From a virus, in IMG/VR virus record IMGVR_UViG_3300034683_000333: a DNA stretch of 64,000 nucleotides. One strand, 5' to 3'. Position numbers and translations under genes: made by a program. Of the stretch, positions 3,782-54,395 are shown one piece after another. A model generated the notes under the pieces. That model saw nothing but the letters and a program-made list of their open reading frames with translations. It had not been told where the DNA came from and did not search any database. How positions within the stretch are numbered: position 1 is the first letter of the stretch; each line of letters starts with the position of its first letter.

Positions 3782-6700
3782 TTAGAAAAGTCTTTTTACG
3801 ATAACATCCAGATATTTTTCGGGTATGACACTTGGAATGTGAACCCGAATCGAAAGCTTATCCATAACATTCTGGACTCCAATATTTGACCCACATAGCT
3901 CCATGGTAAGAAGGTTTCCAAACTCAGTATCCCAACGCCACAAGTTATTTAGTGGAAGAAGATTAACGTAGAATGTTCCAGTCGATGTGGTATCCACACT
4001 CACCACAATGTCTTCGTAGGGAACTGCAAATGACCAACCCACCTCAATGGAATTTGATTTTCTATAAACATAGACCGAAGCGCTCTGAAAGAGACTTGAT
4101 GACTCCATTTGCCAAATCTTATCCGTGTAGGAAACGACGTGAACGGGATTTTGAGCACTAGGACTTCTTCCGGTTGTTGGCAAGTTCCATCTGGCCCACC
4201 AATCCCGAACAATTCCTTGGATCGTACTCCGAAGCTCCGGGTAGATCTCCATAAGACCCACAAACTCTTTGAGCGTTACGGGCATGGAATATGGATCAGA
4301 CAATCCATTAAGAAGGGCTTCGGCCCACGGAACCGCCTTGTCTCCAGCACGAAGCGTCCATGCAAATGTGAGATAACTTCGGAATCGGATGTTGTATGTC
4401 GTATCTGGAACCATGACAAGATGGTAAAAGGCATCACCCGTTTCAACATACTTTTTCATGTAATCATCAACCAGTATGTTGTAATTAAGTTTAATCTCAC
4501 CCAATGCCGTTTCGGCCTATGATTGATTAACATAAACATTATTTGATTCGAGTATATCTTTGACACGATTAGCAAGATTCTTATCAGAAAACTCATTTTT
4601 TGATAACTAAACGTTTTCGGGTAAGAAGATAAGATTTGATTTTACATCCTAAGTATATACTGGTAGAGAAAGCGTGATTGGAACAATGTATGTCGAATAA
4701 AATAACTCCAAAACGGAACTAGGAAGAAACCTTTCAAACACTGCACGGAACTTTTTACGAAGCTCAAAGAAGGCCCCCTAAAACGCCTTGCCATCATCAT
4801 AAGCTGAATCGGTAGTATTTCCAAGAACAGCATTCATTGATTTTTGCATTGTTTGGACGTGTTGATTATTTTGATCAAACACAGCCAAAAACCAAAGAGC
4901 CTTAAAGATGTTTACCCCGGTTGAAATCACACTAGACAAAACACTAGGATCGGAAAGTTGTAGGCGTGAACTTACAGTTACCATTGATGAAGTTGTTTTT
5001 TGAACACCATCTTCATCAACATATTTGATATTTACAATAATAGTCTGCGGTTCCGTGCTATACACAAGATATTTATGAAGTAACTTAACACCAGTTCCAT
5101 AGACCTCATGCACATACATTTCCGTTGATTGAAGAGCTTTGATATCGTAAAGCGATGTTAGTTCAACCAATGTATCGTTATATACATAATCAACTTCTGT
5201 AATTCTAAATTTAGAATAAAGTCGTGAATTTTGCGTAGGTTCAATGAGAATGGTAAACACATCTTCGGTAACTTCGGAGGCTTCACATGTTAGATCCGTC
5301 GAATAAACACGAGAAACAGTGAATGTATCAAATGAAAATGGTGCTATAATGATGTTACTAAGAAATGATTTAAGATTTTCTTTAACGCTTTTATTATTTT
5401 CTGCACTATAAATAAGTGTATCGATAATTTCATTCGTCGTAAGAGACATCGCTGTTTGATCAATCATCACATCCACTTTAACATTGTCCATAAACCAGTT
5501 AACAATTGAAGATATTGATCCACCAAGAAATCCATTTTCCTCCATCCAATCAAAGAATGTAGTGTCGAACGACTCTTTCTTTTTCGTTGTAATATACTTT
5601 TTCCGCTAACTTAAACCATCTACATAATTTCTATATTTCCATGAACTAGGTAATTTATCTTTATAATACTTCACAAGAAAAGATTCCATAGCAATTGGCT
5701 GAATAGAAGAACCATTGAAAATATTTGACGAATTAAACTTTACCCATCCAGTATGATTTCCAGATCGGGAGATTTTTCCGATTGTATATTCGACAAGTCC
5801 ATTGAACGACATCTTCTCAATAGCATCATTTTCTAATTTTGTCTTAACGTTTTCGGGGTCGTTGCGATCCAATGAAAAGTAATGAATCATATAATCTAGC
5901 GTAGCCGTATCATCCCAAGAATCATCCGTTAACAATAAATTTTGGAAACGATTCTTCCCCAATATCATTGCATTGGATTTTAACGTAGGTTCAAGAGAAA
6001 CCTCAATCTCATTTCCAATGTGTGACTGGTAATCATTCTAGAAATCAATAAAAAAGTTTTTCATGCCATTGATAATAGTATCCAATACAGTCGATTTTGT
6101 TAAATTCACAACATCTTTTGTGTGTCCAATGTTCGGTGACATAAATTTATGTATAATAATATCATCTCCATCTTGATTACTGTCATAAACAAAATATTCA
6201 ACCAAATCCATCCCAATGGACATCGGAACTTTAAATTGAACTGGAACACCACGAATCGTCGTTGTTTTATTGTAGGTTAGTTCTTTGATATCAATTCCGG
6301 TTCTAAATAGATTGCGATCCGTTAATGTATAAATATACGTCTCATCTGACGCAAAAGTAACATCTTGTTTTATTTCTTCAACTTTCTTATATAATTGCTG
6401 AACAACGGGCTCATGCGATTTCTTTCTAAGCTTATACCTGGTTGTAATAAACGGCACTTCCATCTATTCTTGGAAATAATTAACATCTGTTGTGTCAATA
6501 CCCTCAGTTGTAATTGATAGGTGGATAATACCATTTAATGATTGTATAATATCATCAGTGTAGTTCATACCCTGCTTAAAACGATAACGATAATAAAGTG
6601 TAAACCATTTATTAAGATTTCCGGTTTCATTTAGTTGCAGGGTGGGTTCAAGGGACAATGAATAAGAAGTTGTGTCCCACTCCAGATATTCAAAAATTGG

Positions 6701-8278
6701 TCCCGTGGCATCCAGTTCAACGACAATTGGAACGTTTTGTAGATAAATCAATTCATATTTTACTGGAATTGACAGAACCATCCAACGATCTGTTGCATCC
6801 GGGCTTAAATAGGCACTGAAATCATCATAACTTGTAAAATCATCACTCCACGGAACAAGAAGATCCGGGTTCCAACCATTTTTCACCCCCGTGTATTCCG
6901 GTGTAAAATTGATTTTTGCGATATAGTCTTTAATGATATCAAAGGGAGCATAAACAAACCGTTTGATGTAGTCTTTATTGGCTTCACTAAATGTATCCGA
7001 CATGAACAACCGGATACCATTTTCTCCGTAGGATAGTAGATTTTTATTTACATCGAATCGTAAATTAAATGTATCGAGATAAATTTTATTTACAAATTGG
7101 CTGTATGGGACCTTCGAACTCCAAAGAAGGTTGTTTGAATACTCCAGAACATCTATTTTAATCGGAATATCCGTGGTGCTGTCAACAAACAACGCCATGG
7201 AATCTTCTGTTTCCACAAACGTAAAATCCACATCCCAATCTGGAATGATGTTTTTAACTTGAAACCAAATATATGTATTCCACCAAAGCGTGCCGTCCTG
7301 GTAAAGATTGAATTCCCATTGATAGCGATTGTTCCGAATAAGCAAAAAACGAATGAAATTTACATTCAGAATATCAAGATGCCCATTCTCCATTCGTTGC
7401 ACACTCGACACCACCTCGTACAAATCGCTTGGTGTGTTGAGTGCCCCTGTAAAATCCACATCCCAATGTACACGATTCAGGTAGAAATCTTGCGCCTCGG
7501 ACCAGAAAAGGTTGAATAAAACATCCGTATCCGCACCCGTTTTCAACTCGTAGACTTCACTTGGTGTATGGAAATACTATTTCTTTTCTTCAGCATGAAC
7601 AACATCCCATGAATCGCCGACGGTACGCTTTATGTTTTCGATAAAATGATTTCTGACTATTTCTTTATAGTCAATCAATTCAATTTCATTCCAAGACAAA
7701 TAATTAAGCTTTAACTTATTATTCAATTTAACGACATAATTGTTATAAATATAATCCTTTAATCCCGTCATAAGTGCATAATCGTTAAACATATCCATTT
7801 CAATAAAGTGAACATCATACTGAATAACCAAATCGTTTGCAAGCCATGGAATGGTTGGTTTCACAAACAACGGAAACGAAAACATATTACCTTCACTTAA
7901 TTCCGGCTAACGGACAACACGAAGAACAAAGTGAAGATCGATTTCCTTCATGAGAAGTGTGTGATCGTAGATGATTTCATCTCGTGTAAACATTACAACA
8001 CTTTGGTCATAACGATTCGTTCCATCCGACTAAAAGATATCCAGGACCTCGAAAAACGTCCGGTCTTTCAAAAACCAACTGTCATCAAATACAAGCTCCA
8101 TGGCGGTAACGTCGGAATACGATTCGAAAACCGTTTTTTGAAGCGTTGAATCGAGTGATAAATAATTTTTTATGGTCTGAATGTCCGTTGTAATATCAAA
8201 TGTTGTATCAGACCAACTTGTTTCATCACCACGATTAAAGTAAATTTTGTGCCTTAGATTGTTTAGGTAAGTAGCCAT
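3782..8278 (-). CDS. 1498-aa hypothetical, probably virion structural, protein with 10 in-frame TAGs
   Basis: Single frame from ATG 8278 to TAA 3782, interrupted only by TAG at 8030, 7907, 7577, 6464, 6038, 5606, 4778, 4649, 4607 and 4517. Joins 7 track ORFs. Confidence 0.88.
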
Positions 8279-18536: not shown

Positions 18537-19745
18537 TTGTTATTCCCCCTTTTTTGGTTTTTTTACTTTCTTTAAGAATTTGTTTATAACACCCGAAAAA
18601 ATACTTTGAGCACGCTTTTTAAACTACTTTGTCTTATCTGAATCAACTTCAAGTGATTCCCTGCGAACGACCGTTGACAATTGCGGTTCACGAACGAGCT
18701 TTCCAAAGCGGTACGTATCGGAAAGCCTGGCATTGATGTGCTTATTTGTAAAATATCGAAAAACATTTAAAATTCCAGCCAATGGTTTTGTATTTTGGGA
18801 AAGAATCGTTTGAACCATCACACGATCATTATCCGATAGATGAGCAAACGGAATATACAACAAGGTTTTTAAGATCTTTTGAACCTTTTCATCCTGTTTG
18901 GAAAACCACTCGTTCCAAAGATCGTTCATAACCCCATCATCGTCTCTTCCCACGGTGGCCTGACGAAACACATCGTGGGCACCCAAAGGAGACGAGATGA
19001 CCGTATTGTAGGTTCCCATGGGGGTCCAGGTTTTTGTGGCAAGGGTTCCAGCCGACACCTGCTTGGCACGCTCGGAAAGATCAGTGTTTACGACCACAAA
19101 ATCCAAGCGTCTTCCCAATGAATCGCTAGTCTTGAAGGCTCTTACCACACGAAGGGCTTCACGTTCTGGAACACCCTTTCCACGGATCTTTCCAATCACC
19201 ACGGCCTCACGCAATGATCGGAACATGCGACGGCGGTTGTTGTCATTAAAAATATCCGATAATTGCCTCGAATATTTCTTCATGCGCTTTTGAATCGAGT
19301 TTTCAATTTTTACCTACTCTTTTTCACCAATGGACGAACGATAATTTCCGATACCACCCGCCTCACGAATTCCCTTCATGAGTTTTGCAACAAAGGCACC
19401 GTCCGGTTTATTGAATCCAACATTGTTTTTGTAGATCGTTCTCATGGCAAGCTGTTCGGCATCGGTTTGAAATTCCTATAGAAACAACATTTGCTCAAAT
19501 GCATAATCTTTATCTTTTTCAATCTTTCTTCGGATATCTCTCCACGATCTTCTTGAATTGAGTAAATCTTTGTTAGAAAATTCTCCAATACCATGGGCAA
19601 CCAATTCACTTTCTTTCTAGAACTTTTTATATTCCTATCGGGAAACAACCTTACCTTTTCGTACATAATTTATACGAGTTTTAGGGTATTTCCCCTTCCT
19701 TCTACCACGAACATCCAATGCTTTCGTAAATTTAATATCATTCAT
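18502..19745 (-). CDS. Hypothetical protein (5 TAGs)
   Basis: ATG 19745 overlaps the upstream TGA. The frame is open except for TAGs and includes FL*EFQTDAEQ..NNVGFN..KKYSRQL. Confidence 0.75.
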
Positions 19746-20812: not shown

Positions 20813-21692
20813 TTTCTCCTAACAGGCTTAAATCAACAGTTTTTGTCAATAAAAATAAACTCTACAAATCACGTAGCACTCCACTGTTCCACAAAACGTA
20901 GTCACAAAGACGACGACACACATCCACATAACACATTTTGATTAGCTTGTCAACATCTTCGCAACCTAAACGATCTCTATATAAATCTTTAATATGATAA
21001 CAAATTATACTATCAAAATTGGTTTGATGCCTTTTGATTATGTCATCATAAAATGAGAAGATCCATCCCGATAAAATATCGTGAATACTTACGTCGGTTT
21101 TAGTATATAAACCCACAGGATTCACATGATAAAAACCAAAGAAATCATTCATACAAACAATAAGCTCAATTGTTTTATAGAATGCCAACTTATCGGCAAC
21201 GTCACTTATATATGTAAATTGAAATCCACGTTTCAACTAAAATGGTATTGATTTATATTTTGTTAATACAATTAAAAAATTGGAAAGATTTGTCTTATAC
21301 TTTTGCTCCACAACATAGAAAAACAACCACTCCACAAAATTAAGTAATATTGTGCCAAAACCATAATTTCTAAGCTCAAAATCATACACACTCATATCTA
21401 TTAAATATAGTGTCAGACAAGAAAATTGATCATGATAGAATGCTTTTGCTATTAATGAAAATAATTTATTATTTATCATAAAAGTGATAATATCATTACC
21501 ATTATCTTTTATTGAACTAAACCTGATATTTCCACATGACAAAAATAAACTGTCACAAATAGACGAAACATCACCGTATCCACATCGACGTAAATACGCA
21601 TAAACATCACTATTTGAAAGTATATTACATTTACAAAATGAATGTATACTTGAAGTTAAGTCTTTAATGTTATCGTTCTCAAAATATGTCAT
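20790..21692 (-). CDS. GNAT-family acetyltransferase-domain protein (TAG readthrough)
   Basis: Motif A RNYGFGTILL and motif B SIPF*LKRGF, which spans TAG 21237. A second TAG at 20862 may be a stop or sense. Confidence 0.7.
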
Positions 21693-21883
21693 TTACCTGG
21701 TTTACCCCAGTAAAGGGCCTTTCTTATTTCCTTTAAGTCTGCAATAATCAAATCAACTTTATCTTCAAACCTACTCTCACGCATGAAATCTTTATGGGCA
21801 TAATCTAATAAGCTCTGAATTTTTTCATAACTAGACCTTACAAGTTTTGTATATACATCAATTTTATTTATGAAATTATCCAT
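21689..21883 (-). CDS. Small hypothetical protein
   Basis: ATGA overlap with the next gene. Confidence 0.6.
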   Translation of the reverse strand: MDNFINKIDVYTKLVRSSYEKIQSLLDYAHKDFMRESRFEDKVDLIIADLKEIRKALYWGKPGK

Positions 21884-22038
21884 GTAATTACAAAATTTTT
21901 TATATAAATACTACAGCCACGCACAAATAATCACGAGAACAGCAATCGATACGGGCAGATTGTTTGTAATCAACTAATTTATTGTATTTGCTATTAAAGC
22001 GTCCATTCGCCACTCCAATAGAAAGGATTCTAAACATC

Positions 22039-22662
22039 ATGAATTCCTATATCTTTTACTTCGACTATCTCTTTAAAAATTAGTTGTTTAACTATCTTCA
22101 AACTGAAGTATTAAATCTCAAACTAGTATATGATCCATATTCTGATAACACACTTAATCCATTGGATAAAACACTTACAGACGACATCAATGAAGCATCC
22201 AATGACGACTGGATCTATGTAAAAAACATCGATTTTTTCAATGCAGTAAAAACATCCTACGATTATCCGATTATCATTGTACCGGAATTCATTACATCGG
22301 CAAACACACAAAATTTTCGAATCCTCAATTATTCAATCAACATTGACTACAACCCCATTTATACACATAAGGAATCACTTGCGTTAGCCAACTCGATTTT
22401 GAACCTGTGGGATATACCATTGGATGGGACAAGATATTGTCTTATCGGAACTGAATTTAGACTATGGGACTTCTTCGATGACGATCCAGACTCCACACTT
22501 CTGGAAAATATCGGCGAACTCAAGTGCATTATGTTCACAAAACCATCCGTCAAGAAAACGCCAACCGGACAGGCAAACTATCTTAGATATGTAATTGACT
22601 TATCATTTTTATTGTTACTTAACGTGGATGCAACACTTATTGGATCGTGTATCCAAGTTTAA
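22039..22662 (+). CDS. Hypothetical protein (1 TAG)
   Basis: AAAGGA RBS, ATG 22039, TAG 22081. Confidence 0.72.
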
Positions 22663-24085: not shown

Positions 24086-24134
24086 GTAAATATCCCCATT
24101 TTTTATGTTTTTACATATCAAAAAATTAGTGCTT

Positions 24135-26060: not shown

Positions 26061-26137
26061 GTTGCACTCCAAAGTTTAATGTAAATGCTTGTCATACAAA
26101 AAAATCAGAATGGGGGATTATTGTCCCCCACTCAGCT

Positions 26138-30088: not shown

Positions 30089-30165
30089 TGGACCCCGTGG
30101 CAGGATTCGAACCCGCACCCAACGGATTTAGAGTCCGTCGCTCTAACCAATTGAGCTACACGGGG
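30089..30165 (-). tRNA. Amber suppressor tRNA, anticodon CUA, CCA encoded
   Basis: CCCCGTG TA GCTC AATTGGTTA GAGC G ACGGA CT-CTA-AA TCCGT TGGGT GCGGG TTCGAAT CCTGC CACGGGG T CCA forms a canonical cloverleaf. Confidence 0.96.
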
Positions 30166-34381: not shown

Positions 34382-34758
34382 TTCTTATTTAACACCTTTT
34401 TCAAAGGTTCCAAACTAATGTTAAAACTATGGTCAAAAGTGACTTTCCAGTCATTTTCTTCCATAACTTTTCCAATAATCTATGGAAAATCACATACTTC
34501 AATACGAGCATTGCTGTTCATACTCACATCAAAGGCAATCTCGACGCTTCCATTAAGCCAATCATAAAACAACAGCCTTACGTTGTCAACAAGAAATGTA
34601 TTATCTGCATCCGGGGAAGAGATTTCGCAAAATCCATTGTACATCAAAGCTCCTGAAATATACATTCGTCTCATATCATCCAGTACATCTTCATCAAACT
34701 CAGTTAGATCTATACAAAAAGAAACAATTGCAAAAACCACATCTGTTTGTTCAACCAT
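34375..34758 (-). CDS. Hypothetical protein (1 TAG)
   Basis: Readthrough of TAG 34480 ends at a TAA that overlaps the next ATG. Confidence 0.7.
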
Positions 34759-34772
34759 TGTGCTACCTCCAT

Positions 34773-35699
34773 TTAAACAAAAATCTCTCGATAAAAATAG
34801 CTATACAAATCTTCATATATCATCAATGTATTATTCGTTTCATTAACCTCTTCGTAGTACGTCAAATCATTTAATTCATGTACTGTTTCATAAAACAAAG
34901 ATAGAAATAAATAACTATTAAGCATTGTAACATATGTATCAATACGCTTTGTTGACACTTTTTTGACTTTTTTGTTCATGAAATGTTTTATTTTAAAAAA
35001 TTTATTCATGTCGTAATAAACGTCAAAAAATTTAGCGGTAATGTTACCAGAAAAAGGGACAACCTCCTTAGAAATCAAATCAATGTACTTTTTGTCGATC
35101 CAATTCTTTTCGTTATTTAACTTATGAATAACGAATCCTCCTGATAAATACTTGCTAACAAGATATTTCAACATATCTGAGAAAGTGACAAAAAAGTGTC
35201 TAAGAACAAAATACAACTCGTCATCAGTAAAGTTGCACAAAAACGAATAGATTGAATCAGAACTTTGAACACGATCATATCCAGGAATGAATCCGTGTTT
35301 CAAAATTTCACGGTAATTACCACAAAGGTCTTTATCAAAATCATCAACAATAAATTTGTAAGTCAGTTTGATTGGCTGAATTTCATCACCATCGCCGAGA
35401 ATAACATCACGCAATGTAAATCCAAGGTGGACATGATTCTGCTTATTCCATCGCATCTACAAATCGTACAATACAGTGTCGATATAATACCAATAATCTT
35501 CTTCATTTATTTTGAGATCTTGCTTAATGGATTGAATACTTTTCTTCTTGGAATTGGGATCATACATAAAATCAAACACCGTGGAATCCAAGATGTGTTT
35601 GCTTTTTGTGGGGTTATCACCCGTTTCAATCTCCCCGCCAAATTCACCAAATACGACATTATTGATGTAATACTCCTGACGATCTGCACGATTTCCCAT
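34773..35699 (-). CDS. 308-aa hypothetical protein (1 TAG)
   Basis: TAG 35457 is directly followed in frame by ORF 34773..35456. Confidence 0.72.
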
Positions 35700-35739
35700 A
35701 ATTTAGTCCTCCTTGGAGTTGTTTATATTTTACTGGATA

Positions 35740-37902
35740 TTACCAACCATTCTTCTGAAAAACCTCGTTGATGTACTTGTTGGCGTACAAAATCTCCATA
35801 CGCCCCGTTGACGTGACACACGAAACAAGCAGTCGATTAAACAAAACTCCAAATGAATATCCAAAATATCCGTAAATCGAATTCGCATAAATTTTATAAA
35901 ACAACTGATAAATATGATACTTTCTTTTTTCTATCGGATCTGTCGCTTCGGCCTTTTTCTTTTTATACTCCGCACGAATTGTCAACAATCGCTCACACAT
36001 CTTTGCAATAAATCCAGGCTTCTTATCGTATATAATCCCTATATTAGCAATTGTGTATTTCCCAGAACGGAAAATACCACGATACACTTTGGAAGCGGAT
36101 ACATTTAAAAAACGATCTTTTACAAAATCATAGACAACGACACGTCGATCATCTCTTGGCTCATCGAAACCATTATAGAGATAATCGATGGTTTCTCGAA
36201 TGGGAGTGATAAACCTGGCCGTCTCAACACTGATGTTAAGACCATACATAATTGTCGGGTACATAGAGAAAAAATCAAGGTCGATGAGTTTTTCGGAAAC
36301 ACCAATAAAACTCTTATTGTAAGCACCACCATAAGAACGAATTGAATGGATGTTGGGGGCGATCACTTTACGCACCCAATCCCATTCATCCTCACCTTCA
36401 CTAAGTCGATTGTGACAAGATGTGGTCACCTGGTGAGCATCCAGGAACTTTTTCCGTTGATCCTCCTTGATCTTCCCACGTCGAATCTGACCAAGCAAAG
36501 TCTGAATGCTATATACCTTCGTATCACTTGAATCATCATCGGAATCATCGTTGTCACTGTTTGTATTATCTTCAGAAACATCATTTTCATCAAGAGATGT
36601 GATATGATTTTTCAAGAAATTGACAATATTCTTATAGAAATATATCTTCAAATCTTTCTTCTCCAAACCATAAAAATCTGCATTAACAGCCTTATATACT
36701 TCATTGAAATAATAGTTATAATAGTTTGTAAACTTTGAAGCAATAAACACAATACCATTAGCTTTACCAAATTTCATAAAATATGGTTCAAGTATGTTCT
36801 TTACATTAAAAACATGCAATACGGCACCATTCTTATGAAACTCAAACATAACATCAATAAGATTAAGATTTTGATCCATCAAATAAATAAGAAAACAGTC
36901 AACGATATTATATGCAATATCAAGAAATGTATCGCTTTCAATTTTATTTACACCAAGTACAGCATTTGCAATATAATCAAGCTTCATACTTGGCATATTT
37001 TTCGATACAATAAACTTATAAAGATTCATGTAATCAATTGAAAACCCATGTGAAAATACATAACACTTTTCAAATCCATCAAACGTTGTATAATATTCAA
37101 TTTTAATACTATTCTTTTCACACCTATTGATAAGATATTGAAGGTCAAAGTTATTAACATTCCATCCAGTAACAATCGCAAATTGCCGCAAACACTTTAA
37201 AATATCAACCAACATCGAACTTTCTTCATCGTAAACATTATAAACAATCCGAAGATCTTCAAAGTCACTGGAATTCACACGACCAGAAACGTGATTCTTA
37301 ATTTTTTCCATAATCTCGTCATGAGATGTGAACTCCACCCGATCACGGAGATAAAACACATTTGCCGTCTTCGTCTCGCAATCGAAGATTGTTGCCAAAT
37401 CGATGGGATATTTTGCCTTCCCGGGATCAGGAAACGAACCGTCATCGGGAAACATCTCGATATCGAACACACACACCCGTACATCATTTCGATCGGCAAG
37501 CGTCACGGGAAGTGTCTTGATGTGGTATTCTGAACGAAACGTATTGTAGGTAAGATACCGAGTGGGATGAAATTCTGTATTGGCAACGGCAGAATATGAT
37601 TTGACATCGCCAATGGTGGAAAGGTGCATCGGATGGACTTCGATTTTTTCACATCGCTTTGCATACTGAAGATACAAAGCTTGAAATTTGTTGCTCTCTG
37701 TTTTCAGATTATCAATGCTATACCTATACACCGGGACCTTAATAGAAACCCGCTTTGAAACAACATGCTTCGTTTCCTTATTTACGAAATGCAAAACACA
37801 TTGTTTTCCAACATAATAAGCATTTAGAAGAACATACCCCTTCTCTTCCCCACGCTTAATCAAATCCAAAATATCAGACAAGCTCATTTCTTGTTGCATC
37901 AA
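35740..37902 (-). CDS. Family B DNA polymerase, N-terminal subunit (3'-5' exonuclease plus motifs A and B)
   Basis: VFDIEM, TGWNVNNFDLQY, MKLDYIA, YNIVD, DLDFFSMYP and KIYANSIYG. It lacks motif C and ends on TAA. Confidence 0.9.
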   Translation of the reverse strand: MMQQEMSLSDILDLIKRGEEKGYVLLNAYYVGKQCVLHFVNKETKHVVSKRVSIKVPVYRYSIDNLKTESNKFQALYLQYAKRCEKIEVHPMHLSTIGDVKSYSAVANTEFHPTRYLTYNTFRSEYHIKTLPVTLADRNDVRVCVFDIEMFPDDGSFPDPGKAKYPIDLATIFDCETKTANVFYLRDRVEFTSHDEIMEKIKNHVSGRVNSSDFEDLRIVYNVYDEESSMLVDILKCLRQFAIVTGWNVNNFDLQYLINRCEKNSIKIEYYTTFDGFEKCYVFSHGFSIDYMNLYKFIVSKNMPSMKLDYIANAVLGVNKIESDTFLDIAYNIVDCFLIYLMDQNLNLIDVMFEFHKNGAVLHVFNVKNILEPYFMKFGKANGIVFIASKFTNYYNYYFNEVYKAVNADFYGLEKKDLKIYFYKNIVNFLKNHITSLDENDVSEDNTNSDNDDSDDDSSDTKVYSIQTLLGQIRRGKIKEDQRKKFLDAHQVTTSCHNRLSEGEDEWDWVRKVIAPNIHSIRSYGGAYNKSFIGVSEKLIDLDFFSMYPTIMYGLNISVETARFITPIRETIDYLYNGFDEPRDDRRVVVYDFVKDRFLNVSASKVYRGIFRSGKYTIANIGIIYDKKPGFIAKMCERLLTIRAEYKKKKAEATDPIEKRKYHIYQLFYKIYANSIYGYFGYSFGVLFNRLLVSCVTSTGRMEILYANKYINEVFQKNGW

Positions 37903-40735: not shown

Positions 40736-41065
40736 TCAATTGGATTCAGCAAGTACAAGACAATTTTCATCAACGTAATCACAGCAATACCATTTTCCAT
40801 CCAAAAGAATAATTTGTGGGATATATTGAGATCCCTTCGCAACGCAATTTACCTGCTTGCAATCTTTATCCCAATTACACCTAAACTCATCTGTTTCAAA
40901 TATATGACTCTCAAGTAGTGCTATCTGACGCTTACGAACCAAACTCGAATTACATCTTTTACACGTCACTGAATCACCCCCTAACACCGTTTCTACGTCC
41001 AATTTTGTTAATGAACGACATCTAACACACTAAAAGTTATCAAGATAAGCTTTATCTTTTTTCAT
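40736..41065 (-). CDS. Cys-rich Zn-binding protein (1 TAG)
   Basis: ATG 41065 forms an ATGA overlap. NF*CVRC and CKRC motifs. Confidence 0.7.
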
Positions 41066-42111
41066 CTCAAAACCTCACACTCGATTGTATCAATAAGTTT
41101 ACCATATCTTTTAATTGAGTCAAGGGAAGGCATATTCGATTGCGTTTTTACCTTCAACCAACCTAAATATGACAATATTTTTAAAACATTTAAAAACTCA
41201 TCGGAATTGCTACAAAACTCAAACTTGTATGCGCCACCCATAAATGCATACGATGATAGGATCACATCCCCCGCACCGACAACCGTTTGTCCCAGCGATT
41301 CGACATAATGGGGAACACCAACACAAAAACCGTGTCCGTGCGTAGAATATCCATACAACCCCCTCGACCCATTTGTAACAATAATGGAATCCAAATGCAA
41401 TATTAACGAAAGATATTTCATTCGGTTATAGATTTTACTGTCATTAACAGAATACATTTTACATAGTTTCGTAAATTCTTTCATGTTACACGTCAAATGG
41501 TTACACCACTCAATATATCTACGTATCACACTTGGACGACAATTTACAACAACGCTATCGTAACATCCAGTTAGATCCGTTTTTATTCTGCTGATAAAAT
41601 AATCAGATATGAATCCCTTTGCATAATCTGGAATAACAAGCACATTATAATACGATCTACTCATATTTTGTTGCATCATGGTCAACAATTCATCGTACAA
41701 ATAATCAGGATACCCATTAAACTCTGAAAAACATTTATCATAATCAATTCGTGTAATGTATCTTTTCGTATCTTGTTCAATAAAACGATCTTTTACTGGA
41801 ATGCTTTGTTTTTCTATAAAATCCGCAATAATAGCATTAAGTGTAAATTGTTTTGGAACACCATTAATTAAACTTGAATCATTTTTTGTCAATAATGAAT
41901 AAAAATCAACTCGATTGGGGCAAAAAGTACCTAAAATATTCGCAACATTTGTTGATCCACCATATCTTGTTTCCATAGAACAAACATCAACAATTTGATT
42001 ACTTGGCAATTCCAAATTGTCTCGAAAAACAATGCAGTCAAAAAATCGGTCTAAAATCACATCCCCAATCACATGGAACCTAACGTTACTAGGAACAGAC
42101 TTCTAGATCAT
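41062..42111 (-). CDS. PfkB-family sugar kinase (HldE / RfaE kinase-like), TAG at codon 3
   Basis: AGGAGG RBS, then MI*KSV..VIGDVILD, GGSTNVA, PDYAKG, VTNGSRG and VGAGD. Confidence 0.8.
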
Positions 42112-42162
42112 TGCATTCCTCCTAAAAAAAAAAAGAGAGATGGTGTTTCCCCCATCTCAAAC

Positions 42163-42954: not shown

Positions 42955-44256
42955 TTATCCGTTAAACCTAATGTAAGTCGGTAGAACATCCACCAACTTT
43001 TTCGTACCGTCAAAATAACATATTTTAATATCGTTGTAAAGTCTTTTTATGAATTCAATGTAATCCGAATCAGAAAAAATGTGTTGCCTAAACATCATTA
43101 CTGCACCACATTTCACCATAACCTTCCAAAACGGAATAGAATCGTTGGTTAAAAAGAAATTGTAAAGGTCAACAAGTGAATCGAACTTAAGTTCCTCCGA
43201 CGAAGAAACATTTTCTTCCATAAAATCGTCCATATCCAGTGTTTCTTCTTTTTCGTTGCCATCAATTTCGGTGTATTTTATCACCAACGTTTTGGGAATA
43301 GATAGTTTATAAGGTCCACGTTTCTTTTCCAGAATACCCAGATCCTTAAGCATCATAATATTACTCAAAATCGCATCAAAGCCAGAAAACTGCGTCATCT
43401 CCAATCGAAAATCAACACCAACAAATGCATCCCGAGCCTTTTGAATCGTCCACAAAACACTTCTTGCCGCATCGGGCCGTTTTGTAAAAAATTTCGATTT
43501 ACTAAGACTCTTACCATAAAGAGTCAAATGACTCTTGTGCCGAAGAAAATTCCCACCGGGTGGTTCAGGTGGTGCAAACATATCCTGCTTTTCCCGATAT
43601 TGATTAATCACAAAGAACGTCATCCCAAGAGACGAAAATTGAAGATCACGAAGCATACTCGAAACAGCACGTGCCGTATCACCACGACCAGTAACCATTT
43701 TGGGCGGTGTGGCGGCCACACTATCCCAAATGACAACAAGCTCCTTTTGAGGAAACTTTTTCTTTACGATATCCAAAATTGCAGGGATATCCTCAATTGT
43801 GTTGGGAATGATTGGCTTTTGAAATGGAAGAACGATTTTGATTCGCTTCAACCATTCCGTGGCAACGCCCTCTTCCGAATCAAGAAACAAGAAGATGTAA
43901 CGATCTTGTTCCCCATTCAAAACAGATTGCCTGAAGATAGAACTCGCAATTTGAAAAGAGAGCGTTGTTTTTCCACTCCCGGGAACCCCCCAAAGATAGG
44001 TCATTCGATTCTTTGGTATTCCACCACAAAGAACCAAATCAAGATACGGATTTCCTGTTTTAAATAGATGCTTTTCCTCTCCGTCATCACTCAACGAGAG
44101 ACTTGCAACATCTTTGTACATCGATTCCAATTCATTATTCATTTTTTCAAGAATAGAATTGAAATCAATCGTTCCAGAATCTTCATTGATCTCTTTCCGT
44201 TCGTTTTCAATAATCATTTGATCTTCCATTACGGCCTCCCTTTTTCTTCTAGCCAT
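42955..44256 (-). CDS. recA: RecA / UvsX-like recombinase
   Basis: GNPYLDLVLCGGIP, Walker A GVPGSGKTT, FLDSE, IWDSVAA and INQYR. Confidence 0.88.
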   Translation of the reverse strand: MARRKREAVMEDQMIIENERKEINEDSGTIDFNSILEKMNNELESMYKDVASLSLSDDGEEKHLFKTGNPYLDLVLCGGIPKNRMTYLWGVPGSGKTTLSFQIASSIFRQSVLNGEQDRYIFLFLDSEEGVATEWLKRIKIVLPFQKPIIPNTIEDIPAILDIVKKKFPQKELVVIWDSVAATPPKMVTGRGDTARAVSSMLRDLQFSSLGMTFFVINQYREKQDMFAPPEPPGGNFLRHKSHLTLYGKSLSKSKFFTKRPDAARSVLWTIQKARDAFVGVDFRLEMTQFSGFDAILSNIMMLKDLGILEKKRGPYKLSIPKTLVIKYTEIDGNEKEETLDMDDFMEENVSSSEELKFDSLVDLYNFFLTNDSIPFWKVMVKCGAVMMFRQHIFSDSDYIEFIKRLYNDIKICYFDGTKKLVDVLPTYIRFNG

Positions 44257-44314: not shown

Positions 44315-44452
44315 ATGGGCAAAAAGAAACTCCCTCGTGTTGACATAGATTAGCAGACTCTCATCGACGAGTCAAGTAAAAAATCAAAAAAGAAAAAGAT
44401 TTGTCGCAAGCTCAAAAAATCAAAGAAAAAGTTTAAATTAAGTATTAAATGA
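44315..44452 (+). CDS. 45-aa Lys-rich basic peptide (1 TAG), missed by the track
   Basis: AAGGAG RBS. MGKKKLPRVDID*QTLIDESSKKSKKKKICRKLKKSKKKFKLSIK. Confidence 0.55.
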
Positions 44453-44962: not shown

Positions 44963-45571
44963 TTACCTCCGGTTAGTTTTTTTAGATTCAGTAATATTTC
45001 TAAAATATGCTATATAAAAAGAATCCAATATATCGGAAAGCGGAGACTTTAATTTATCACCACCACCATTAACATCATTATATATAGACAAAACATCGTC
45101 GTACCATTCATTTGAAACAATTATCTTAGATGAATCAACCATATCACAAAAGACTCTAAACAGTTCCTCCTTCTTGGCATTACCCTTATAAATTGCTTTT
45201 TTCACCATAGTTGGTGATACAACACAAAAAGTGTTCATCTGCCTCGTCAAAACCAGTTTTAAAATACCAACGAATTCACCTATCGAAAAAACTTTTCCAA
45301 CAGCCCTAAAAGCATAATCTTCAATCAAAAGGTCATCATAATCATACCGTTCAATAAAATTTGAAAATGTTTTTACAACTTCATAATAGTATAAAATATC
45401 ATTACCAATTGCTTTACGATCAATAAATATCGGGGTTATTGTACCACGCTCACATCGATCTGCCATCCTTTGTGTCGGAACCACGACCCAGGATCTCGTT
45501 ATGCCGTCTTCTGTCTATACGGTCATGGCCGTAGATGTGATTGAAGGATCAATTCCGATGTAGCACTTCAT
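44963..45571 (-). CDS. RuvC-like Holliday junction resolvase (TAG at codon 19)
   Basis: GGAGG RBS. MKCYIGIDPSITSTA (catalytic Asp) lies upstream of TAG 45515, then LLIEDYAF, KKAI and DILDSF. Confidence 0.85.
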
Positions 45572-45610: not shown

Positions 45611-45640
45611 AAAAGGCTCGACCGAAGCCGAGCCTCTTTT
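45611..45640. terminator. Intrinsic terminator
   Basis: AAAAGGCTCGaccgaagcCGAGCCTCTTTT. Confidence 0.65.
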
Positions 45641-45646: not shown

Positions 45647-46345
45647 TCAAACCATAAGCTTCAAAAATTGCATTCTCATGTCGTCATCCCATTTGCGATC
45701 CTTTAGGCGGATCGGAAGCTTAACACCCATCGTCCGCAATATTTTCCAAACGTCGGTTTTTTTGTAAAACAAATATTTGGAAAGTTCAAAACATCCATCG
45801 GGTGTGAACAAGAACACCCTTTCCGTTCTTTTTTGCCAATCCTCGGAATCCACCATTTTGACAACCGCAAGGTTCGATTCCTTAACAACCTACGTGATAT
45901 AGAATCCCTCGGGAATCGAACAATTGGTAAAATTTCTCAACCTTTTCTTAAAATTCCTATCTCTCCATACAACATACTTTTCAGGAAATGTATTTCTATA
46001 GGCCAAATCCCGATCATTTACATTACATTCGGTTTTGGTCCAATCATTTCTTCTTATCTTTGCTTTATCTCTTTCAGCCACAATTCGAACATATTTTTTC
46101 TGTTTTTCAGTATACCAAGAAACAGTAAGATATGTGGTTTTAGCCAAATATTTATAGCTGTTTCCAACATGGCCTCCATCCGAATAGATGTAGCCATACT
46201 TATTTTCTTCAATCATGGGAATGTATTTAAACAGTACCCAACGTTCAATGAGACGACACCGATTACCACGTTCTACAGTGTCAAGAATCTACTCGATCTC
46301 ATTCTTTACATTTTCTACATCAATGAAAATAAAACGCTTTTCCAT
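45647..46345 (-). CDS. 232-aa hypothetical protein (2 TAGs)
   Basis: GGGGGG RBS with ATG 46345. The TAGs join two track ORFs. Confidence 0.72.
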
Positions 46346-46514
46346 GATTGCCCCCCTATGTTTGAGTCATCCAACCCTTATCGTTAGTTATGATTTATCA
46401 TAACTTGATAAGTATGTCAAGAAGATTTTTTAAATTTTGATTGGAAAATTAGATTTTCAAAGGGATGAAATGGAATTGATTAAGACTAACCAAAAAATCA
46501 AAGCTATTAAACAA

Positions 46515-46552
46515 TAAAAAACCCGGTCACTCTATCGAGGCCGGGTTTTTTG
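46515..46552. terminator. Intrinsic terminator downstream of mucR
   Basis: AAAAACCCGG..CCGGGTTTTT. Confidence 0.75.
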
Positions 46553-46569
46553 TAGGCGGTGGTAAAAAC

Positions 46570-47154
46570 CTAATCTTTCTTCTTTTCGTCCTTCGTATCC
46601 TTTTTTGTCTCCTTCGTTAAATCAACAGCAACGGCCTGCTTGCCAACGCTCGTCACCGCATCCACGACCGGTTCTGCACCACCAACGGCAACCTTATCTT
46701 CGCTTTTCCGTCTGCTAGCCTGATACTTCCGAAGATTTTCGGGAAGCCCACGCTCCTTGGCAAGCTTCGATCGGCGCTTGCTCACCTCAAGACACGAAAG
46801 GGGCTGGCGCTTTCCAAATCCCCACTTGGCTTTGTATTCCTTGGGGGTCAAACCGTGCTCACGAAGGTGTATGAATGTGAGTTGCTTAAATTCTTTACCA
46901 CATTCGAGACAAATCACCTTGTCCTTCTGGATACTGTTCTCGGGTGAAATCTTTTCTTCCACTTCTTCAATTTGTGGGGCAAACAGTCGATCGATATCGA
47001 ATTTTTCGATTTCGCCCTCATCCATCTTGTTAAGTTTCATGATCCCAAGGTAGGTTTTCCGAACTTCTTCCAAGATTTCCCTGGGAGACATGTTGGGATA
47101 ATCCCGACGATCCTTAATGAGATTAACAGCAAGTTCCATCATCTTGTTTTCCAT
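46570..47154 (-). CDS. MucR / Ros-family Zn-finger regulator
   Basis: SIQKDKVICLECGKEFKQL..HLREHGLTPKEYKAKWG..PL..SKRRSKLAKERGL. Ends on TAG. Confidence 0.9.
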   Translation of the reverse strand: MENKMMELAVNLIKDRRDYPNMSPREILEEVRKTYLGIMKLNKMDEGEIEKFDIDRLFAPQIEEVEEKISPENSIQKDKVICLECGKEFKQLTFIHLREHGLTPKEYKAKWGFGKRQPLSCLEVSKRRSKLAKERGLPENLRKYQASRRKSEDKVAVGGAEPVVDAVTSVGKQAVAVDLTKETKKDTKDEKKKD

Positions 47155-47262
47155 GGTTACACCTCCCACATCTTATTTTGGCTTCTGAAGTTTAAAACTG
47201 ACCACCACTCTACGGGAATAACAATAAATCATCTTGATATAGCGATCAAGCATTTTTTTTCT

Positions 47263-49781: not shown

Positions 49782-52700
49782 ATGTTTTCACAAAACTCAT
49801 CCATGAATCTTGATATCCTATCAAATAAAGACTTTGTAAAAGCATATAATACAATACTCCAGTCTCTCAATCAAGATACGCCAATTTTTTACCAAAATAC
49901 TGACAAGTTCCAAATTACCATCAACCCCCAAGACTTTGACTTACTACAAGTCAACGAAAAACTATCACACGCCATCATACTACCATACGAAGTTAGTATT
50001 GTCAATAAATCTTTTATGAAAACAAAAGTATATCGATTGGTATCACGAAAACTTCCAAATACGATAAACTAGCACACGAACGCACAATTCCCATTCACCG
50101 TTGAAATTGACCAAACCAGGTCCTTTCTATTGTACGTGACTATTGATACACTTGATGATATTGATTGGTTAATCGATAACGATTTGGCATTTGTCGCTTA
50201 TACAGATAACACCACCCTTTACGAAATCGATTTTGCGATAAGAGTGCCTGACATTCGTGGAATTTCTTCATTTAGCCAGTTTGAAAACTACATCGAAGCA
50301 AAAGATTGGTACGAATCCGGTGTAACGGATTTCGACGAAATCATTAACCTTAGTATAGGAATCCATAAACAATCACAAGCAAGCCGCATCCTTAATCAAG
50401 CATTGATTGATTTTACAGATCGCTCATCACAAGAATTCAATTCATTAATTCAGTCCATTTAGAATCCAGAAGACATCTCTGAACTCGAAAAATAGAGAGC
50501 AACCTTCAAACCCCATCTTCCTGGAGATTTCATTTGGGCGCTCCTCACACTTGAAGACAACTATTCACTCAAATCAAAAATGAAGTTTAATATTCAAAGA
50601 ATTTCATATATTTCTGGTATTTTAGAAAACAAAAAAAATTGCGGATATGATGAAGCATCACAAATGTTTGAAAATTAGAAGAATTCAGTTGAAGTCTATA
50701 CCGGAACGGACATAACAGAACAACGACAAAAACTCGATTTACTTACTATGCAGATCAGAATACCTTGGTTCGGCTCTGAATGGTGTATTTTTGACGTTAT
50801 TACGACCATTCTAAATATCAATGGATACCAAACTACTGTAACAGACAACCAAAGTCTAAAGGAATATGTGGGACAACACATTCGATCAAGCGGAATCAGC
50901 AACTTAACACCTTATATAGAAGATGTAAACATAAACTATGATATTAGCTCACAAATTAAGGAAAATACTTATACATTTACAACTTTGGTTCCTACTGGTT
51001 ATGTACCTAAACCTGACAATACAACACAATATGGTTACAAAATCATTCATGCAGATCATTCTATTTTGTTTAGTGATATTCTCGATACAACCGACTTTGA
51101 GATAAGCTTTATATATCATCGCCCAGTAAACATAACAAGTAGGAATTTTATTTTTCATGATTTCAAAGATTCTTTTATTCAGAAAATGTTAAGTTATGAT
51201 TGGACATCTTATTTTGGTGGAAGCATCGACCCAAATATTCCCATTAACCTACTATCGACAGACTACACGATTGAACTCTAGAAAACCAATGAAAATGGTG
51301 ACTTCACCTACGACAACACACAATGGGTGGTCAATAAAGTTACAACACTTCATCTTTCTGATGAAATTGTTGAATCTTTTAGAATAACGAACTTTGAAAT
51401 TCTTGACGATGGAAGTGGTGACATCCTTCTAACACAAACAAATAATGTAACCGACATCGTTGCAATCCACAAAATTGACGTATTCAATGAAGGAAACACA
51501 TATTTGCAACTTACTGAAGCGAAATGGTTTTTGCCTACAATATACCCATATCAAGAACAATTCAAAACAGCATTTCCATCATTCTTCGTTGGCCTCGACA
51601 CCATAACAAACAACAAAGAATTTTATCAATCCATGATTAAACGAATCGACATTGTTTCAACTGGAACACTAACTCCTGGTGAAACGGGTTCAATTTTCGT
51701 TGTTGTCAGACTGAATAGAAACATATTAAGTCATTACCTATCACAATTTATTGAAATACCATATGCAATCAAGCTAACATTCAATGAAGATCTTCATTAT
51801 TACATCACGTGGAGCACAAATGGCATTATTTCAAAATACCTCGACTGGAAAGAAGGAAAACAAAAGTATCATCCCAAGAACATTATGTGGCAGTAGCCAT
51901 TTTCCAATGAAATTCATAACGGTGATTTGCCACTGGCAATTCCAGATGATGATGTATATAAATACTTTCCACCTAATTTTAATTACTAGTTTTCCACCTA
52001 CCACGAAGAATCAAGCGACCCAGTGACATATCCCAACGACTTTGTAAAAACACTGGCACGGATGAGCGAAGATCCTTCTACGAATCTACCAGCGCCCATC
52101 GTCAAACCTGGACAATACGGCATCGTCGCATACCCGATGATTCTTCCTATTCCAGAAGGTGAGACAAACATCGGGAGCATTTCTGATCTCATCACCCGGT
52201 GTCATACCGCACCACTCAACAAAACCACCTATCGAATTCACTGGCTCTATTTCAACGAATTTTTTGATGACATCCTCTCAACATACAAAACGGCAAAAAA
52301 ACTCGGCTTTAGTTGGATTCCAACGTCAGAAAATACACACTACGTAACAAATGGTCTTGACTATACTGAAAATAGAATAATTCCAAATACAGGAAGTATT
52401 CGACCAATCAATTTAGAATAGTTTACCAAAATCAACGCAAAAGTTACATTTATGTTTAATGAAACACTTAAAAATGTATTTGAATACAGCTTCCCACGCA
52501 CCATTTCAACATATGAAACGCTAAGCGATGTAGATAAATTTTTACAAGAACTTAAAGGTGAAAATGAAGAAATAATACCACCAAAAGAAGATAAACCAAA
52601 GAAGTTTTTGGATAAATTCCTTTACAAAGTAAAATTAGGTGAAATTGTAGGAAACAAACCAGGAACTATGATTGTTCAAACCGATTATATGAATCTTTTA

Positions 52701-54395
52701 ACAATTCAGCGACACGACAATTTCACGATCAAAACACACTCAATCGGCCCCGATTCACCAGACACGTATCAAATTTCAATAGTTGATCCGACACTTGGTA
52801 ACGGGGAAATCATTATTCGCTTCTTAGGATCTGATTACACTTTTACTTTCGAATGGGAAAAAATTGATGAACGTTCCATCCTCGAAAACATTGGTAACGT
52901 TGTAATCGATCCAGATTACATCAACCTTAAATACATTCCCATTGACGAAACATATTCTGTTGCCATCTCCATTACAAATCCAAATCCGTTTCCATTGGAT
53001 ATCACGAGCTTACCCATGGCAAATGATTCGATGTTGGTTGTTGAAATGGTTGAATTTCCAGAAAATGAATATCTTAATCTTCTTTATCATCATTGGAAAG
53101 TCCTAAATAAACCTTATAAACTTCAACCCAATGAAACTGTAAAACTTGTTTTACGAATTATTCCACGTCGCATTGGGGTGAACTTTCATACATTATACTT
53201 AAAAATCGGTAATTCAATCCGAACTGTTGACATCGAATTTAACTCTTTTGTAAATAACAAACCATATTTTGTTCTAGATGAAGAAAGTAGAATTGTCGAT
53301 TTTGGAGATGTACCCATCGGGAAAATTGAAGAAAAATCAATTATTATTAAAAATATCGGTGATGTTATTGGAAAAATAAATTCAGTTTACACTTTCGGAA
53401 ATGATGCTCAACATTTCAAGCTTCTCGATCCAAGAACTGGAGAAATTGCAGAACGTTTGTCATTTAATAAGATTGTAAAACCGAAAACATCCCTTCACGT
53501 ACCGGTACGATTCTACAGCCAATCATACGGTCTGAACACGTCGTATGCTCACATCGAAACCAATGAACCGGTTGTTGACCAGTGGCAAATTTTCGATGAT
53601 TCGACCCAGCTATTCAGAAATGCACCAAAGTATCTGTCAACACTGTTACGTGCTCAAGTCGTTTTGGAAGACGACCCAGTTGATCTTGATACCTATATTT
53701 TCCTTGGTTATGTACATCCAACCAGAAGTCGTTTTAGAACATACGAATTAACACTCAATAACAAATCATCCGATAAGATCATTAGCATTTAGAAAATTGA
53801 TAACTACATGAAAAACTATATTAAAATAAAATACAGTCAAGAGCCTTTCTCACAGAAAACAAGCGTTTATATAACACTCAATCCAAGATCATATTCAGAA
53901 AACATATATTTTGATCAACTATTTGTCTGGTATTCCGTTTATGACAAGAAGACGCATAAACGTCGAATCGTATTGAAAAAAATACCCATTTCGTGGCAAG
54001 TTACCTCAGAAAACTATTATGAATTTGACATCAATGCAAGTGAGCTTATTCTTGTCACAAAACCGTTTATCAAAACAATGAAAGTTTTGCATGTCACAAA
54101 CTTTAGCAACGTCGATGCAACAATGGAGATAAGCTTTTTGAACGATTTTAGTGGACTTTACTCTATTGTACCCCATCTTATTGGACCTGTTCTTATACCA
54201 GAAGGAGTTCGATACACTTTCAGAATTCTTTTCGGTGGGGATCAACGATTTCTTGGAAAATATGACACAGGAATAAACATTCTATTCAATATTGGTGAAT
54301 CAACAATATAGAAAACAATTGCATTGAAGGGACTCATTGGAGAAGAAAACATCATTAAAGCGTACAAGCGAAAAAATATCATCATAACAACCTAA
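49782..54395 (+). CDS. 1537-aa protein with ASH / choice-of-anchor-D-like Ig domains (10 TAGs), probably structural
   Basis: Single frame from ATG 49782 to TAA 54393, broken only by TAG. Joins 7 track ORFs. IVDFGDVPIGK..IIIKNIG motif. Confidence 0.88.

Follow-up and report, generated by a model that had tools for sequence, protein, structure and literature searches.

In-frame TAG codons in a phage contig are partitioned by gene class and favored near gene starts

The 64,000-nt window analyzed here belongs to a phage contig of 126.5 kb that CheckV scores as 64% complete. Reading TAG as a sense codon instead of using the standard code raised coding coverage from 80.4% to 89.5% and lowered the number of ORFs from 140 to 104; the alternative code is needed for the long ORFs. 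ARAGORN located a suppressor tRNA with the anticodon CUA and a cloverleaf fold (30089..30165, minus strand), present as one copy only in this phage, at the 3' end of a TAG-free array of replication genes. A TAG-free IS605-type TnpB gene with a consensus sigma-70 promoter (30252..31493, minus strand) lies directly upstream of it. The gene for a CCA-adding tRNA nucleotidyltransferase (57962..59470, plus strand; Pfam PolyA_pol and HD, NCBIfam CCA models) has a ACTAATTT motif 32 nt 5' and opens a candidate code-change operon. A divergent tryptophanyl-tRNA synthetase (TrpRS; 60503..61729, plus strand; Pfam tRNA-synt_1b; 6 TGG), 28 kb from the tRNA, had trpS models as its best NCBIfam matches (1e-30 vs 1e-6 for tyrS), every one below the cut-off. 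Both genes are TAG-free, as are the genes around the tRNA, which places the decoding kit in the standard code. The 163-aa ORF between them (59894..60385, plus strand), which has no match in Pfam, carries its sole TAG at codon 7 (59912-59914), as checked base by base. A search of 126 kb of this phage found no release factor.

TAG sites were compared with diverged alleles, in which the aligned residue was Trp at 23 sites, Tyr at 6, Phe at 4 and Gln at none. A 596-aa protein encoded just downstream of the tRNA (28237..30027, minus strand; ACTAATTT 30 nt 5') has four TAG sites, and at all of them full-length homologues have Phe, Tyr or hydrophobic residues. With Trp, Tyr or Phe opposite TAG and Gln at no site, the alignments indicate that TAG is tryptophan in this phage, not glutamine, and that genetic code 15, the label used in an earlier note on this DNA, is inapplicable. 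Code 15 (TAG as Gln), which is used by phage gene callers, likewise has TAG as sense and TAA and TGA as stops; the difference lies in the aligned residues. A gene caller set to TAG as Gln would mistranslate such proteins, and one that begins ORFs past the first TAG would lose their N termini. One ORF contains 27 TAGs, so TAG decoding would have to be nearly complete late in infection.

The genes readable in the standard code include a split family-B DNA polymerase (polB; 33422..37902, minus strand) encoded in parts of 720 aa (35740-37902) and 319 aa (33422-34381), both TAG-free; the genes inside the split (34375-34758 and 34773-35699) have one TAG each. TAG is also absent from the genes for a RecA-like recombinase (42955..44256, minus strand; 5 TGG) and a PD-(D/E)XK exonuclease (38989-40227), from the FEN-like (19742-20812), Mre11-like (24801-26072), dut (40172-40720), SIS/gmhA (26138-26743), VWA/DUF2201 (54431-55657) and AAA (56731-57777) genes, and from the IS transposase genes (1347..2899, minus strand). 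A recount agrees with the earlier note, which had listed the polB pair, recA, the FEN-like gene, mre11, the exonuclease, dut, gmhA, MoxR/VWA, cca and trpS as free of internal TAG. The listed genes contain 35 TGG and no TAG (P = 3e-4 given the TAG share of the whole genome), a count in which mre11, dut, gmhA and cca are uninformative on TAG avoidance because they have no Trp codon at all.

All other counts of the earlier note, covering the giant genes and the N-terminal TAGs, hold as well. The two giant genes have 10 TAGs each: one encodes 1498 aa (3782..8278, minus strand; 33 TGG) and has no PHROG or Pfam match, and the other encodes 1537 aa (49782..54395, plus strand; 18 TGG) with a weak Ig-like domain and the ACTAATTT motif 34 nt 5'. 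A 401-aa ORF whose function is not known (18540..19745, minus strand) has five. Searches of the large TAG-rich proteins against PHROGs, Pfam and NCBIfam gave nothing usable, only weak Kelch and Ig matches, and a PDB sequence search with three candidates gave no match. An AlphaFold model of the 596-aa protein (pLDDT 78) returned only generic helical bundles from Foldseek (PDB, BFVD) and a wide VIA-align search. The giant unannotated genes are probably virion or tail genes; none of the TAG-rich genes matches a structural family. In a first count, 32 of the 45 TAG-bearing genes had just one or two TAGs.

The partition of TAG by gene class is real and statistically significant. Counted over the whole contig, the replication and nucleotide-metabolism genes recognizable by Pfam have 1 TAG to 56 TGG and the giant unannotated genes 93 to 190 (Fisher p = 6e-8), and the class difference that the earlier note had noticed is borne out. 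A set of Trp-rich paralogues has 104 TGG and no TAG, and TAG accounts for 0/12 Trp codons in the AT-rich IS genes and 0/6 in the CCA enzyme and TrpRS genes. Genes with Trp codons yet zero TAG number 59, where 42 were expected and none of 2000 shuffles gave more than 54. Along the genome, the genes with TAG occur in clusters (runs test p = 0.002).

Several TAG-bearing genes have the codon very close to their start, and base-by-base inspection bore out the positions given earlier for the PfkB/HldE kinase (codon 3), RuvC (codon 19), the 163-aa ORF above and the ORFs beginning at 44315 (codon 13) and 22039 (codon 15). Upstream of the ATG of the PfkB/HldE-type sugar kinase gene (41062..42111, minus strand; sole TAG at 42103-42105) are a Shine-Dalgarno site, AGGAGG, and a hairpin resembling a terminator. 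The same arrangement, with GGAGG, lies 5' of the gene for a RuvC-like resolvase (44963..45571, minus strand), whose catalytic motif IGIDPS precedes its sole TAG (45515-45517). The putative gene at 44315..44452 (plus strand) encodes 45 lysine-rich residues and has ACTAATTA and AAGGAG on its 5' side. The 207-aa ORF at 22039..22662 (plus strand), with codon 15 as its sole TAG, follows a ACTAATTT motif by 59 nt, and the same motif lies 5' of a 105-aa ORF (21689..22006, minus strand) with TAG at codons 11 and 32. A 473-aa ORF (22664..24085, minus strand) has TAG at codons 14, 205 and 374; its start was reassigned to 24085 because a ACTAATTT motif occupies 24123-24130. TAG is codon 12, and the only one, of a 109-aa ORF (40736..41065, minus strand), and stands at codons 19 and 152 of a 232-aa ORF (45647..46345, minus strand).

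The choice between TAG and TGG was determined as a function of codon position in TAG-bearing genes. Between codons 11 and 20 the ratio is 12 TAG to 1 TGG, compared with 140:309 past codon 20 (p = 1.1e-5), and in codons 2-20 it is 15 TAG to 4 TGG (p = 3.9e-5). A-ending and G-ending synonymous pairs, used as a control, showed no shift (65/40 early vs 2578/1275 further in). After start correction, genes with a Shine-Dalgarno match of at least 5 nt had 8 early TAGs where 2.4 were expected (p = 0.001). The N-terminal peptides of the early-TAG genes are not paralogous. Beyond codon 20 there is no gradient, the TAG share staying at ~0.31 up to the ends of genes reaching 2511 codons. This bias of a recoded TAG to the first 20 codons appears to be new and previously undescribed.

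Relatives repeat the partition and, only in part, the early-TAG bias. A distant relative carries a syntenic tRNA(CUA), RF2 and the CCA enzyme; its replication and translation genes have 0 TAG to 39 TGG and the remainder of its genes 44 to 140 (p = 1e-4). Its RuvC begins MAYD-TAG-YIGIDPS and so has an early TAG of its own at codon 5, and in three relatives codon 5-6 of the gene within the split polB is TAG. No excess is seen over the first 20 codons of the distant relative's genes (3 observed vs 2.6 expected); over the first 50 codons there is one (13 vs 6.8, p = 0.01), with several gene starts uncertain. The N-terminal TAGs of RuvC and the kinase are not kept in all relatives. The pair of N-terminal TAGs in the 2511-aa gene is conserved in the relative L014 and was discarded as evidence, since the segment is 97.5% identical in nucleotides and conservation is trivial. 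Conservation of an ACTAATT motif was not evident in the distant relative, and scans of viral contigs and a metagenome found no relatives. The proposal of the earlier note that N-terminal TAGs act as translational gates gains statistical support from the strong preference for TAG over TGG in codons 2-20, a preference repeated only in part among relatives; the note's interpretation as a whole is partly supported.

The partition is not accounted for by composition, recent acquisition of genes or misplaced starts. If composition alone were responsible, replication genes would favor G over A in their codons, possibly by adapting to the host tRNA pool or through expression level, and TGG would be preferred without selection on the code. 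Replication genes do use G-ending codons more often than giant genes (AAG 0.52 vs 0.31, TTG 0.85 vs 0.50, AGG 0.54 vs 0.19), but the TGG/TAG odds ratio is ~27 compared with 2-6 for control codons. The Trp-rich paralogues are near average in codon usage yet have no TAG, the AT-rich IS genes and the CCA and TrpRS genes are TAG-free too, and the positional bias comes without any A/G shift in controls. The codon-usage shift between classes is too small for this account, although under the largest control shift 1 TAG among the 57 Trp codons of the replication genes is borderline (P = 0.054); composition alone is considered quite improbable. A historical origin, in which TAG-free genes were recently acquired from standard-code genomes and TAG accrued only in old, fast-evolving phage genes, fits the TAG-free IS elements, the absence from L014 of window positions ~984-3495 with the IS transposase genes (1347-2899), and the TrpRS, CCA enzyme, RNR and heptose genes, which are typical acquisitions. 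It is nevertheless very improbable, in that core replication genes are TAG-free in two lineages with ~38% RecA identity. Their identity to any relative is just 27-40%, which implies saturated synonymous sites, and many TAG-free genes are also without a family match.

The early TAGs invite two further explanations. TAG might be slow and leaky even late, with RF1 competing, and be best tolerated near the start, where abortion wastes least, with no regulation of timing. Selection against costly nonsense errors would indeed give an early-codon excess, and RF2 in relatives suggests managed termination. Against this, the TAG share is flat past codon 20 in genes of up to 2511 codons, the 27-TAG gene could not be made with a leaky TAG, and the TAG-free status of entire gene classes is left unexplained; this explanation is judged unlikely. 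It is hardly credible that the N-terminal TAGs are annotation artefacts lying in 5' leaders with the true starts downstream. Three such cases were encountered and corrected (31718-32290, 37905-39095 and 22664-24202), the TAG of 37905-39095 belonging to a TAGGAGG Shine-Dalgarno site. The bias persists after correction at the Shine-Dalgarno-supported starts, Shine-Dalgarno sites are missing from all alternative starts further downstream, and in RuvC the catalytic motif is located before the TAG.

A two-dialect genome with a timed code switch, in which early TAGs gate one class of genes, is considered moderately probable. Class 1, readable in the standard code, would comprise the DNA replication, recombination and nucleotide-metabolism genes, the kit (tRNA(CUA), TrpRS and CCA-adding enzyme), the IS elements and the Trp-rich repeat proteins. 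Class 2, made full-length only with TAG as tryptophan, would comprise the giant unannotated genes and scattered smaller ones, RuvC and the heptose kinase among them. In a host presumed to use the standard code, translation of class 1 would begin at once, and host RF1 would free ribosomes from class 2 messages at the first TAG until Trp-charged phage tRNA(CUA) accumulates. Selection would have put TAG into codons 3-20 in about one-third of class 2 genes, and an early-TAG gene, unsuppressed, would yield a peptide of 2-19 residues and not a long truncated protein. It is tentatively proposed that an early amber codon, lying somewhere in the first 5-35 or so codons, serves as a translational timer that selection has placed on genes that must wait and that can be attached to single genes inside early arrays, such as the RuvC resolvase. 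That RuvC is held back until packaging is conjecture.

In stop-codon-recoded phages of the crAss-like, Lak, Garnet, Agate and Jade clades, early genes follow the standard code and late or lysis genes are recoded (10.1101/2021.08.26.457843). The partition corresponds to this published model and is not itself new; it carries the idea of a mid-infection code switch that holds late genes back into a lineage with TAG as tryptophan. In both systems in-frame stops are concentrated in part of the gene set, replication genes can be read in the standard code, the suppressor tRNA is phage-encoded and the code-change genes are themselves free of recoding. RF2 is reported for TAG-recoded Lak and Agate phages (10.1101/2021.08.26.457843) and occurs in relatives of this phage. 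Borges et al. report only TAG as Gln and TGA as Trp, and their text does not mention a bias of recoded codons to the first 20 codons (10.1101/2021.08.26.457843). Here, in contrast, TAG reads as Trp, TrpRS is paired with a TAG suppressor, and the recoded class gave no matches that mark it as structural or lytic. The code-change operon of TGA-recoded Jade phages consists of TrpRS, RF1 and a TGA suppressor tRNA (10.1101/2021.08.26.457843). As in that operon, the phage TrpRS is predicted to charge a stop suppressor with Trp and the operon is without the recoded codon; unlike in Jade, the codon is TAG, the tRNA is distant from TrpRS and no release factor was found in 126 kb. In Streptomyces, several conserved TTA codons read by the bldA tRNA-Leu(UAA) lie within the first 15 codons (PMC10327506). 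In both arrangements one dedicated tRNA reads a codon that growth genes (bldA) or presumed early genes (here) lack and that a regulated gene usually carries once. TTA is a cellular sense codon whereas TAG is a viral stop codon, bldA has no synthetase or release-factor component, and there is no homology.

The positional bias is a testable signature that the choice of TAG is selected for gating and not drifting, and the early-TAG statistic is simple and applicable to every recoded phage genome. If the timer holds across recoded phage clades, infection timing would be readable from uncultured phage sequence alone.

Several TAG-bearing genes have solely a C-terminal TAG, which is probably their stop codon. 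The only recognizable lysis-type gene, an SLT lytic transglycosylase (62603..63277, minus strand), has its sole TAG at codon 219 of 224, probably a standard-code stop. The sole TAG of a Ros/MucR-type regulator gene (46507..47169, minus strand) is codon 200 of 220, and the homologue in a 64%-identity relative likewise ends at TAG. The last 20 codons of genes show a marginal TAG excess (12 vs 7.0, p = 0.05), which was rejected as a separate signal and read as leftover TAG stop codons.

The window corresponds to the minus strand of nucleotides 35228-99227 in a single 126,535-bp viral contig (64% complete by CheckV) and differs from the genome record in having A instead of G at 31218, 31224 and 62300. 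An identical protein fragment is also carried by a 195,227-bp contig. ARAGORN located a tRNA with anticodon CUA at 30089-30165 (minus strand), and Ile(UAU) is the sole other tRNA on the contig. The tRNA(CUA) gene ends in ...CACGGGG-U-CCA, so the discriminator position is U and the CCA is encoded; a U here is unusual for bacterial tRNA-Trp, which has G73. Greedy ORF coverage was 80.4% with TAG as a stop and 89.5% with TAG as sense, and 140 ORFs merged into 104; the same test gave no gain with TGA or TAA as sense. Genes (n = 124) were called under TAG-as-sense, and start sites were refined with Shine-Dalgarno matches and a single promoter-like motif as guides.

The amino acid assignment was approached through a 2511-aa giant gene, which has an allele with 59.5% protein identity on the JGI contig behind the related strain L014. 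In this allele pair and the neighboring gene, TAG aligned with Trp 23 times, Tyr 6 times, Phe 4 times and never with Gln, a substitution pattern that mirrors that of TGG-encoded Trp. Four TAG sites in a 596-aa protein (28237-30027, minus strand) lie opposite Phe, Tyr or hydrophobic residues in full-length homologues (26-32% identity). Because TAG aligns with Trp, Tyr and Phe but never Gln, TAG is tryptophan in this phage, which makes TGG the proper comparison codon. The 2511-aa gene and the genes after it (window -8780 to 983; adjoining stretch L001 and strain L014) show only about 75% nucleotide identity between the two strains, against 99% in the flanks, and the region is a hypervariable cassette, as expected of a host-recognition protein.

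TAG use is partitioned by gene class. The earlier note made this claim, and a recount found all of its counts correct. TAG is absent from the split family-B polymerase, RecA, Mre11-like phosphoesterase, PD-(D/E)XK nuclease, dUTPase, SIS/GmhA, VWA/DUF2201 with its AAA ATPase, CCA-adding enzyme, divergent TrpRS and FEN-like 5'-3' exonuclease. Pfam or NCBIfam confirms each of these except the FEN-like exonuclease, whose identity is weakly supported. The giant genes at 3782-8278 and 49782-54395 contain 10 TAGs apiece. Fourteen Pfam-supported replication, recombination and nucleotide genes have 1 TAG and 56 TGG, versus 93 and 190 in the eight unannotated genes of at least 700 aa (Fisher p = 6e-8). 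The CCA enzyme plus TrpRS (6 TGG), the IS genes (12 TGG) and four Trp-rich repeat paralogues (104 TGG) have no TAG. TAG heterogeneity between genes exceeded all 2000 label shuffles, 59 Trp-containing genes lacked TAG (shuffle mean 42, maximum 54), and TAG-bearing genes were grouped along the genome (runs test p = 0.002). The split polymerase occupies 33422-37902 as 720-aa and 319-aa genes with two inserted genes, one TAG each; an inserted gene is also present in the distant relatives L009, L012 and L013. Among phages, the closest matches come from T4-like Acinetobacter phages and carry the annotation of split DNA polymerases.

Codon composition contributes to the partition, since G-ending codons are also commoner in replication genes (odds ratios about 2-6). 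The TGG/TAG odds ratio of about 27 is beyond this control range, and TAG is equally absent from gene classes whose codon usage is average or AT-rich. Composition alone, the explanation that the earlier note had itself set against its claim, is therefore insufficient. Recent acquisition accounts for the TAG-free IS genes: strain L014, about 99% identical over the neighboring 3496-4910, lacks the first IS element (window ~984-3495), which contains transposase genes at 1347-2899. Acquisition leaves the core replication genes unaccounted for. The partition by gene class is a known kind of pattern, here in a new code variant.

A distant relative (59.4 kb of a Logan contig tiled; RecA 38% identical) encodes a CCA enzyme and an RF2-type release factor bearing an SPF motif, and its tRNA(CUA) is syntenic. 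Its recognizable replication and translation genes contain 0 TAG and 39 TGG, versus 44 and 140 in the remainder (p = 1e-4). RF2-type factors with an SPF or SPY motif are encoded at L009:4441-5457, L012:2392-3339 and L013:4635-5486 in distant relatives; no release factor was found in 126 kb of this phage.

The earlier note also proposed that N-terminal TAGs act as translational gates, and its five positions (kinase codon 3, RuvC codon 19, and codons 7, 13 and 15 of the genes at 59894, 44315 and 22039) are exact. The kinase ATG is preceded by AGGAGG, and the length of its N terminus is consistent with HldE-type kinases. GGAGG precedes the RuvC ATG and the catalytic IGIDPS motif lies 5' of the TAG, so this TAG is certainly within the protein. 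The 45-aa ORF at 44315 has ACTAATTA and AAGGAG upstream.

Early TAGs are over-represented. Codons 2-20 hold 15 of 155 TAGs versus 6.6 expected under uniform within-gene placement (p = 0.002), distributed over 14 of the 45 TAG-bearing genes (15 if the 44315 ORF is counted). In TAG-bearing genes the TAG:TGG ratio is 15:4 in codons 2-20 (p = 3.9e-5), and 12:1 in codons 11-20 versus 140:309 past codon 20 (odds ratio 26, p = 1.1e-5), beyond which there is no TAG gradient. N-terminal Trp frequency is normal and codon choice alone is altered; five A-ending versus G-ending synonymous pairs show no N-terminal shift, and GC content is flat. The bias is kept in genes with Shine-Dalgarno matches of at least 5 nt (8 versus 2.4), and the N-terminal peptides of early-TAG genes have no common motif. 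Selection for a cheap gate would be expected to produce such an early-codon bias. No description of it was found in the literature searched, and it is the new, testable part of the analysis.

Comparative support for the bias is partial. The distant relative's RuvC begins MAYD-TAG-YIGIDPS and so has its own, independent early TAG in codon 5, and in three relatives of widely differing GC a TAG stands at codon 5-6 of the gene inserted in the split polymerase. Conservation of the TAGs in RuvC and the kinase does not extend to every relative. The first-20-codon test was null in the 59-kb relative (3 versus 2.6); only the first-50 test passed there (13 versus 6.8, p = 0.01), with some starts uncertain. 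For the 2511-aa gene, the two N-terminal TAGs shared with L014 were dropped as evidence, the segment being almost identical in nucleotides.

Some hints on transcription were also obtained. Eight of the 15 copies of the 8-mer ACTAATTT are intergenic (binomial P = 2e-6), 26-44 nt ahead of a start codon. Internal TAGs occur in 9/12 genes downstream of it versus 29/112 others (p = 0.001), and the CCA-to-TrpRS gene run is likewise preceded by it. The motif (C/A)ACTAATT(T/A), a candidate phage promoter, lies 26-71 nt 5' of start codons, chiefly of TAG-bearing genes and the CCA-TrpRS run (window 9243, 21980, 22077, 24123, 30057, 44283, 49748, 57930 and sites outside it); its conservation was not evident in the distant relative. 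The kinase and RuvC, the two best-supported N-terminal-TAG genes, each have a terminator-like hairpin with a T run directly 5' (42137-42158 and 45615-45629, minus strand). Both are followed by closely packed TAG-free genes, and within these arrays TAG is the feature that separates the genes. The IS elements at 984-3495 and 30252-31584 have consensus TTGACA-N17-TGATATAAT promoters; the second, an IS605-type TnpB element, lies immediately 5' of the suppressor tRNA gene and could supply a host-type promoter for its transcription.

These findings agree with the model of Borges et al. (10.1101/2021.08.26.457843). Standard-code genes and the code-change kit (tRNA(CUA), TrpRS and CCA-adding enzyme) would be made first, and recoded genes would be delayed until suppression sets in. 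One gene carries 27 TAGs, which implies nearly complete TAG decoding late in infection; TAG avoidance in early genes is therefore more than an efficiency matter. We infer the timing, the host's code and RF1 handling. No annotation attempt yielded a usable function or family for the TAG-rich genes, so their structural role is an assumption. The nearest working analogy comes from Streptomyces, with bldA and its TTA codons. The observation in the earlier note is confirmed, and its timed-switch and gate interpretation is partly supported by the partition and the early-codon bias, with partial replication in relatives.

In seven genes, among them SLT, a Ros/MucR regulator and 26902-27435, a single TAG falls within the last 20 codons. 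The spacing between such a TAG and the following TAA or TGA looks random, the Ros/MucR homologue also ends at TAG, and one relative's RF2 terminates in TAG with TAA immediately after it. These genes are read as still using TAG as a stop codon, which fits the standard-code class. The Trp-rich paralogues (290, 234, 259 and 294 aa) are adjacent, running from window 63727-64000 to coordinate 67499 (L004:16230-19130, the adjoining stretch). They encode repeats of about 33 residues that carry the motif YCxxHFDxWWDxxxFNW, have no Pfam match, and contain 8-11% Trp, all TGG. Their position downstream of RNR is held by the RF2 gene in distant relatives.
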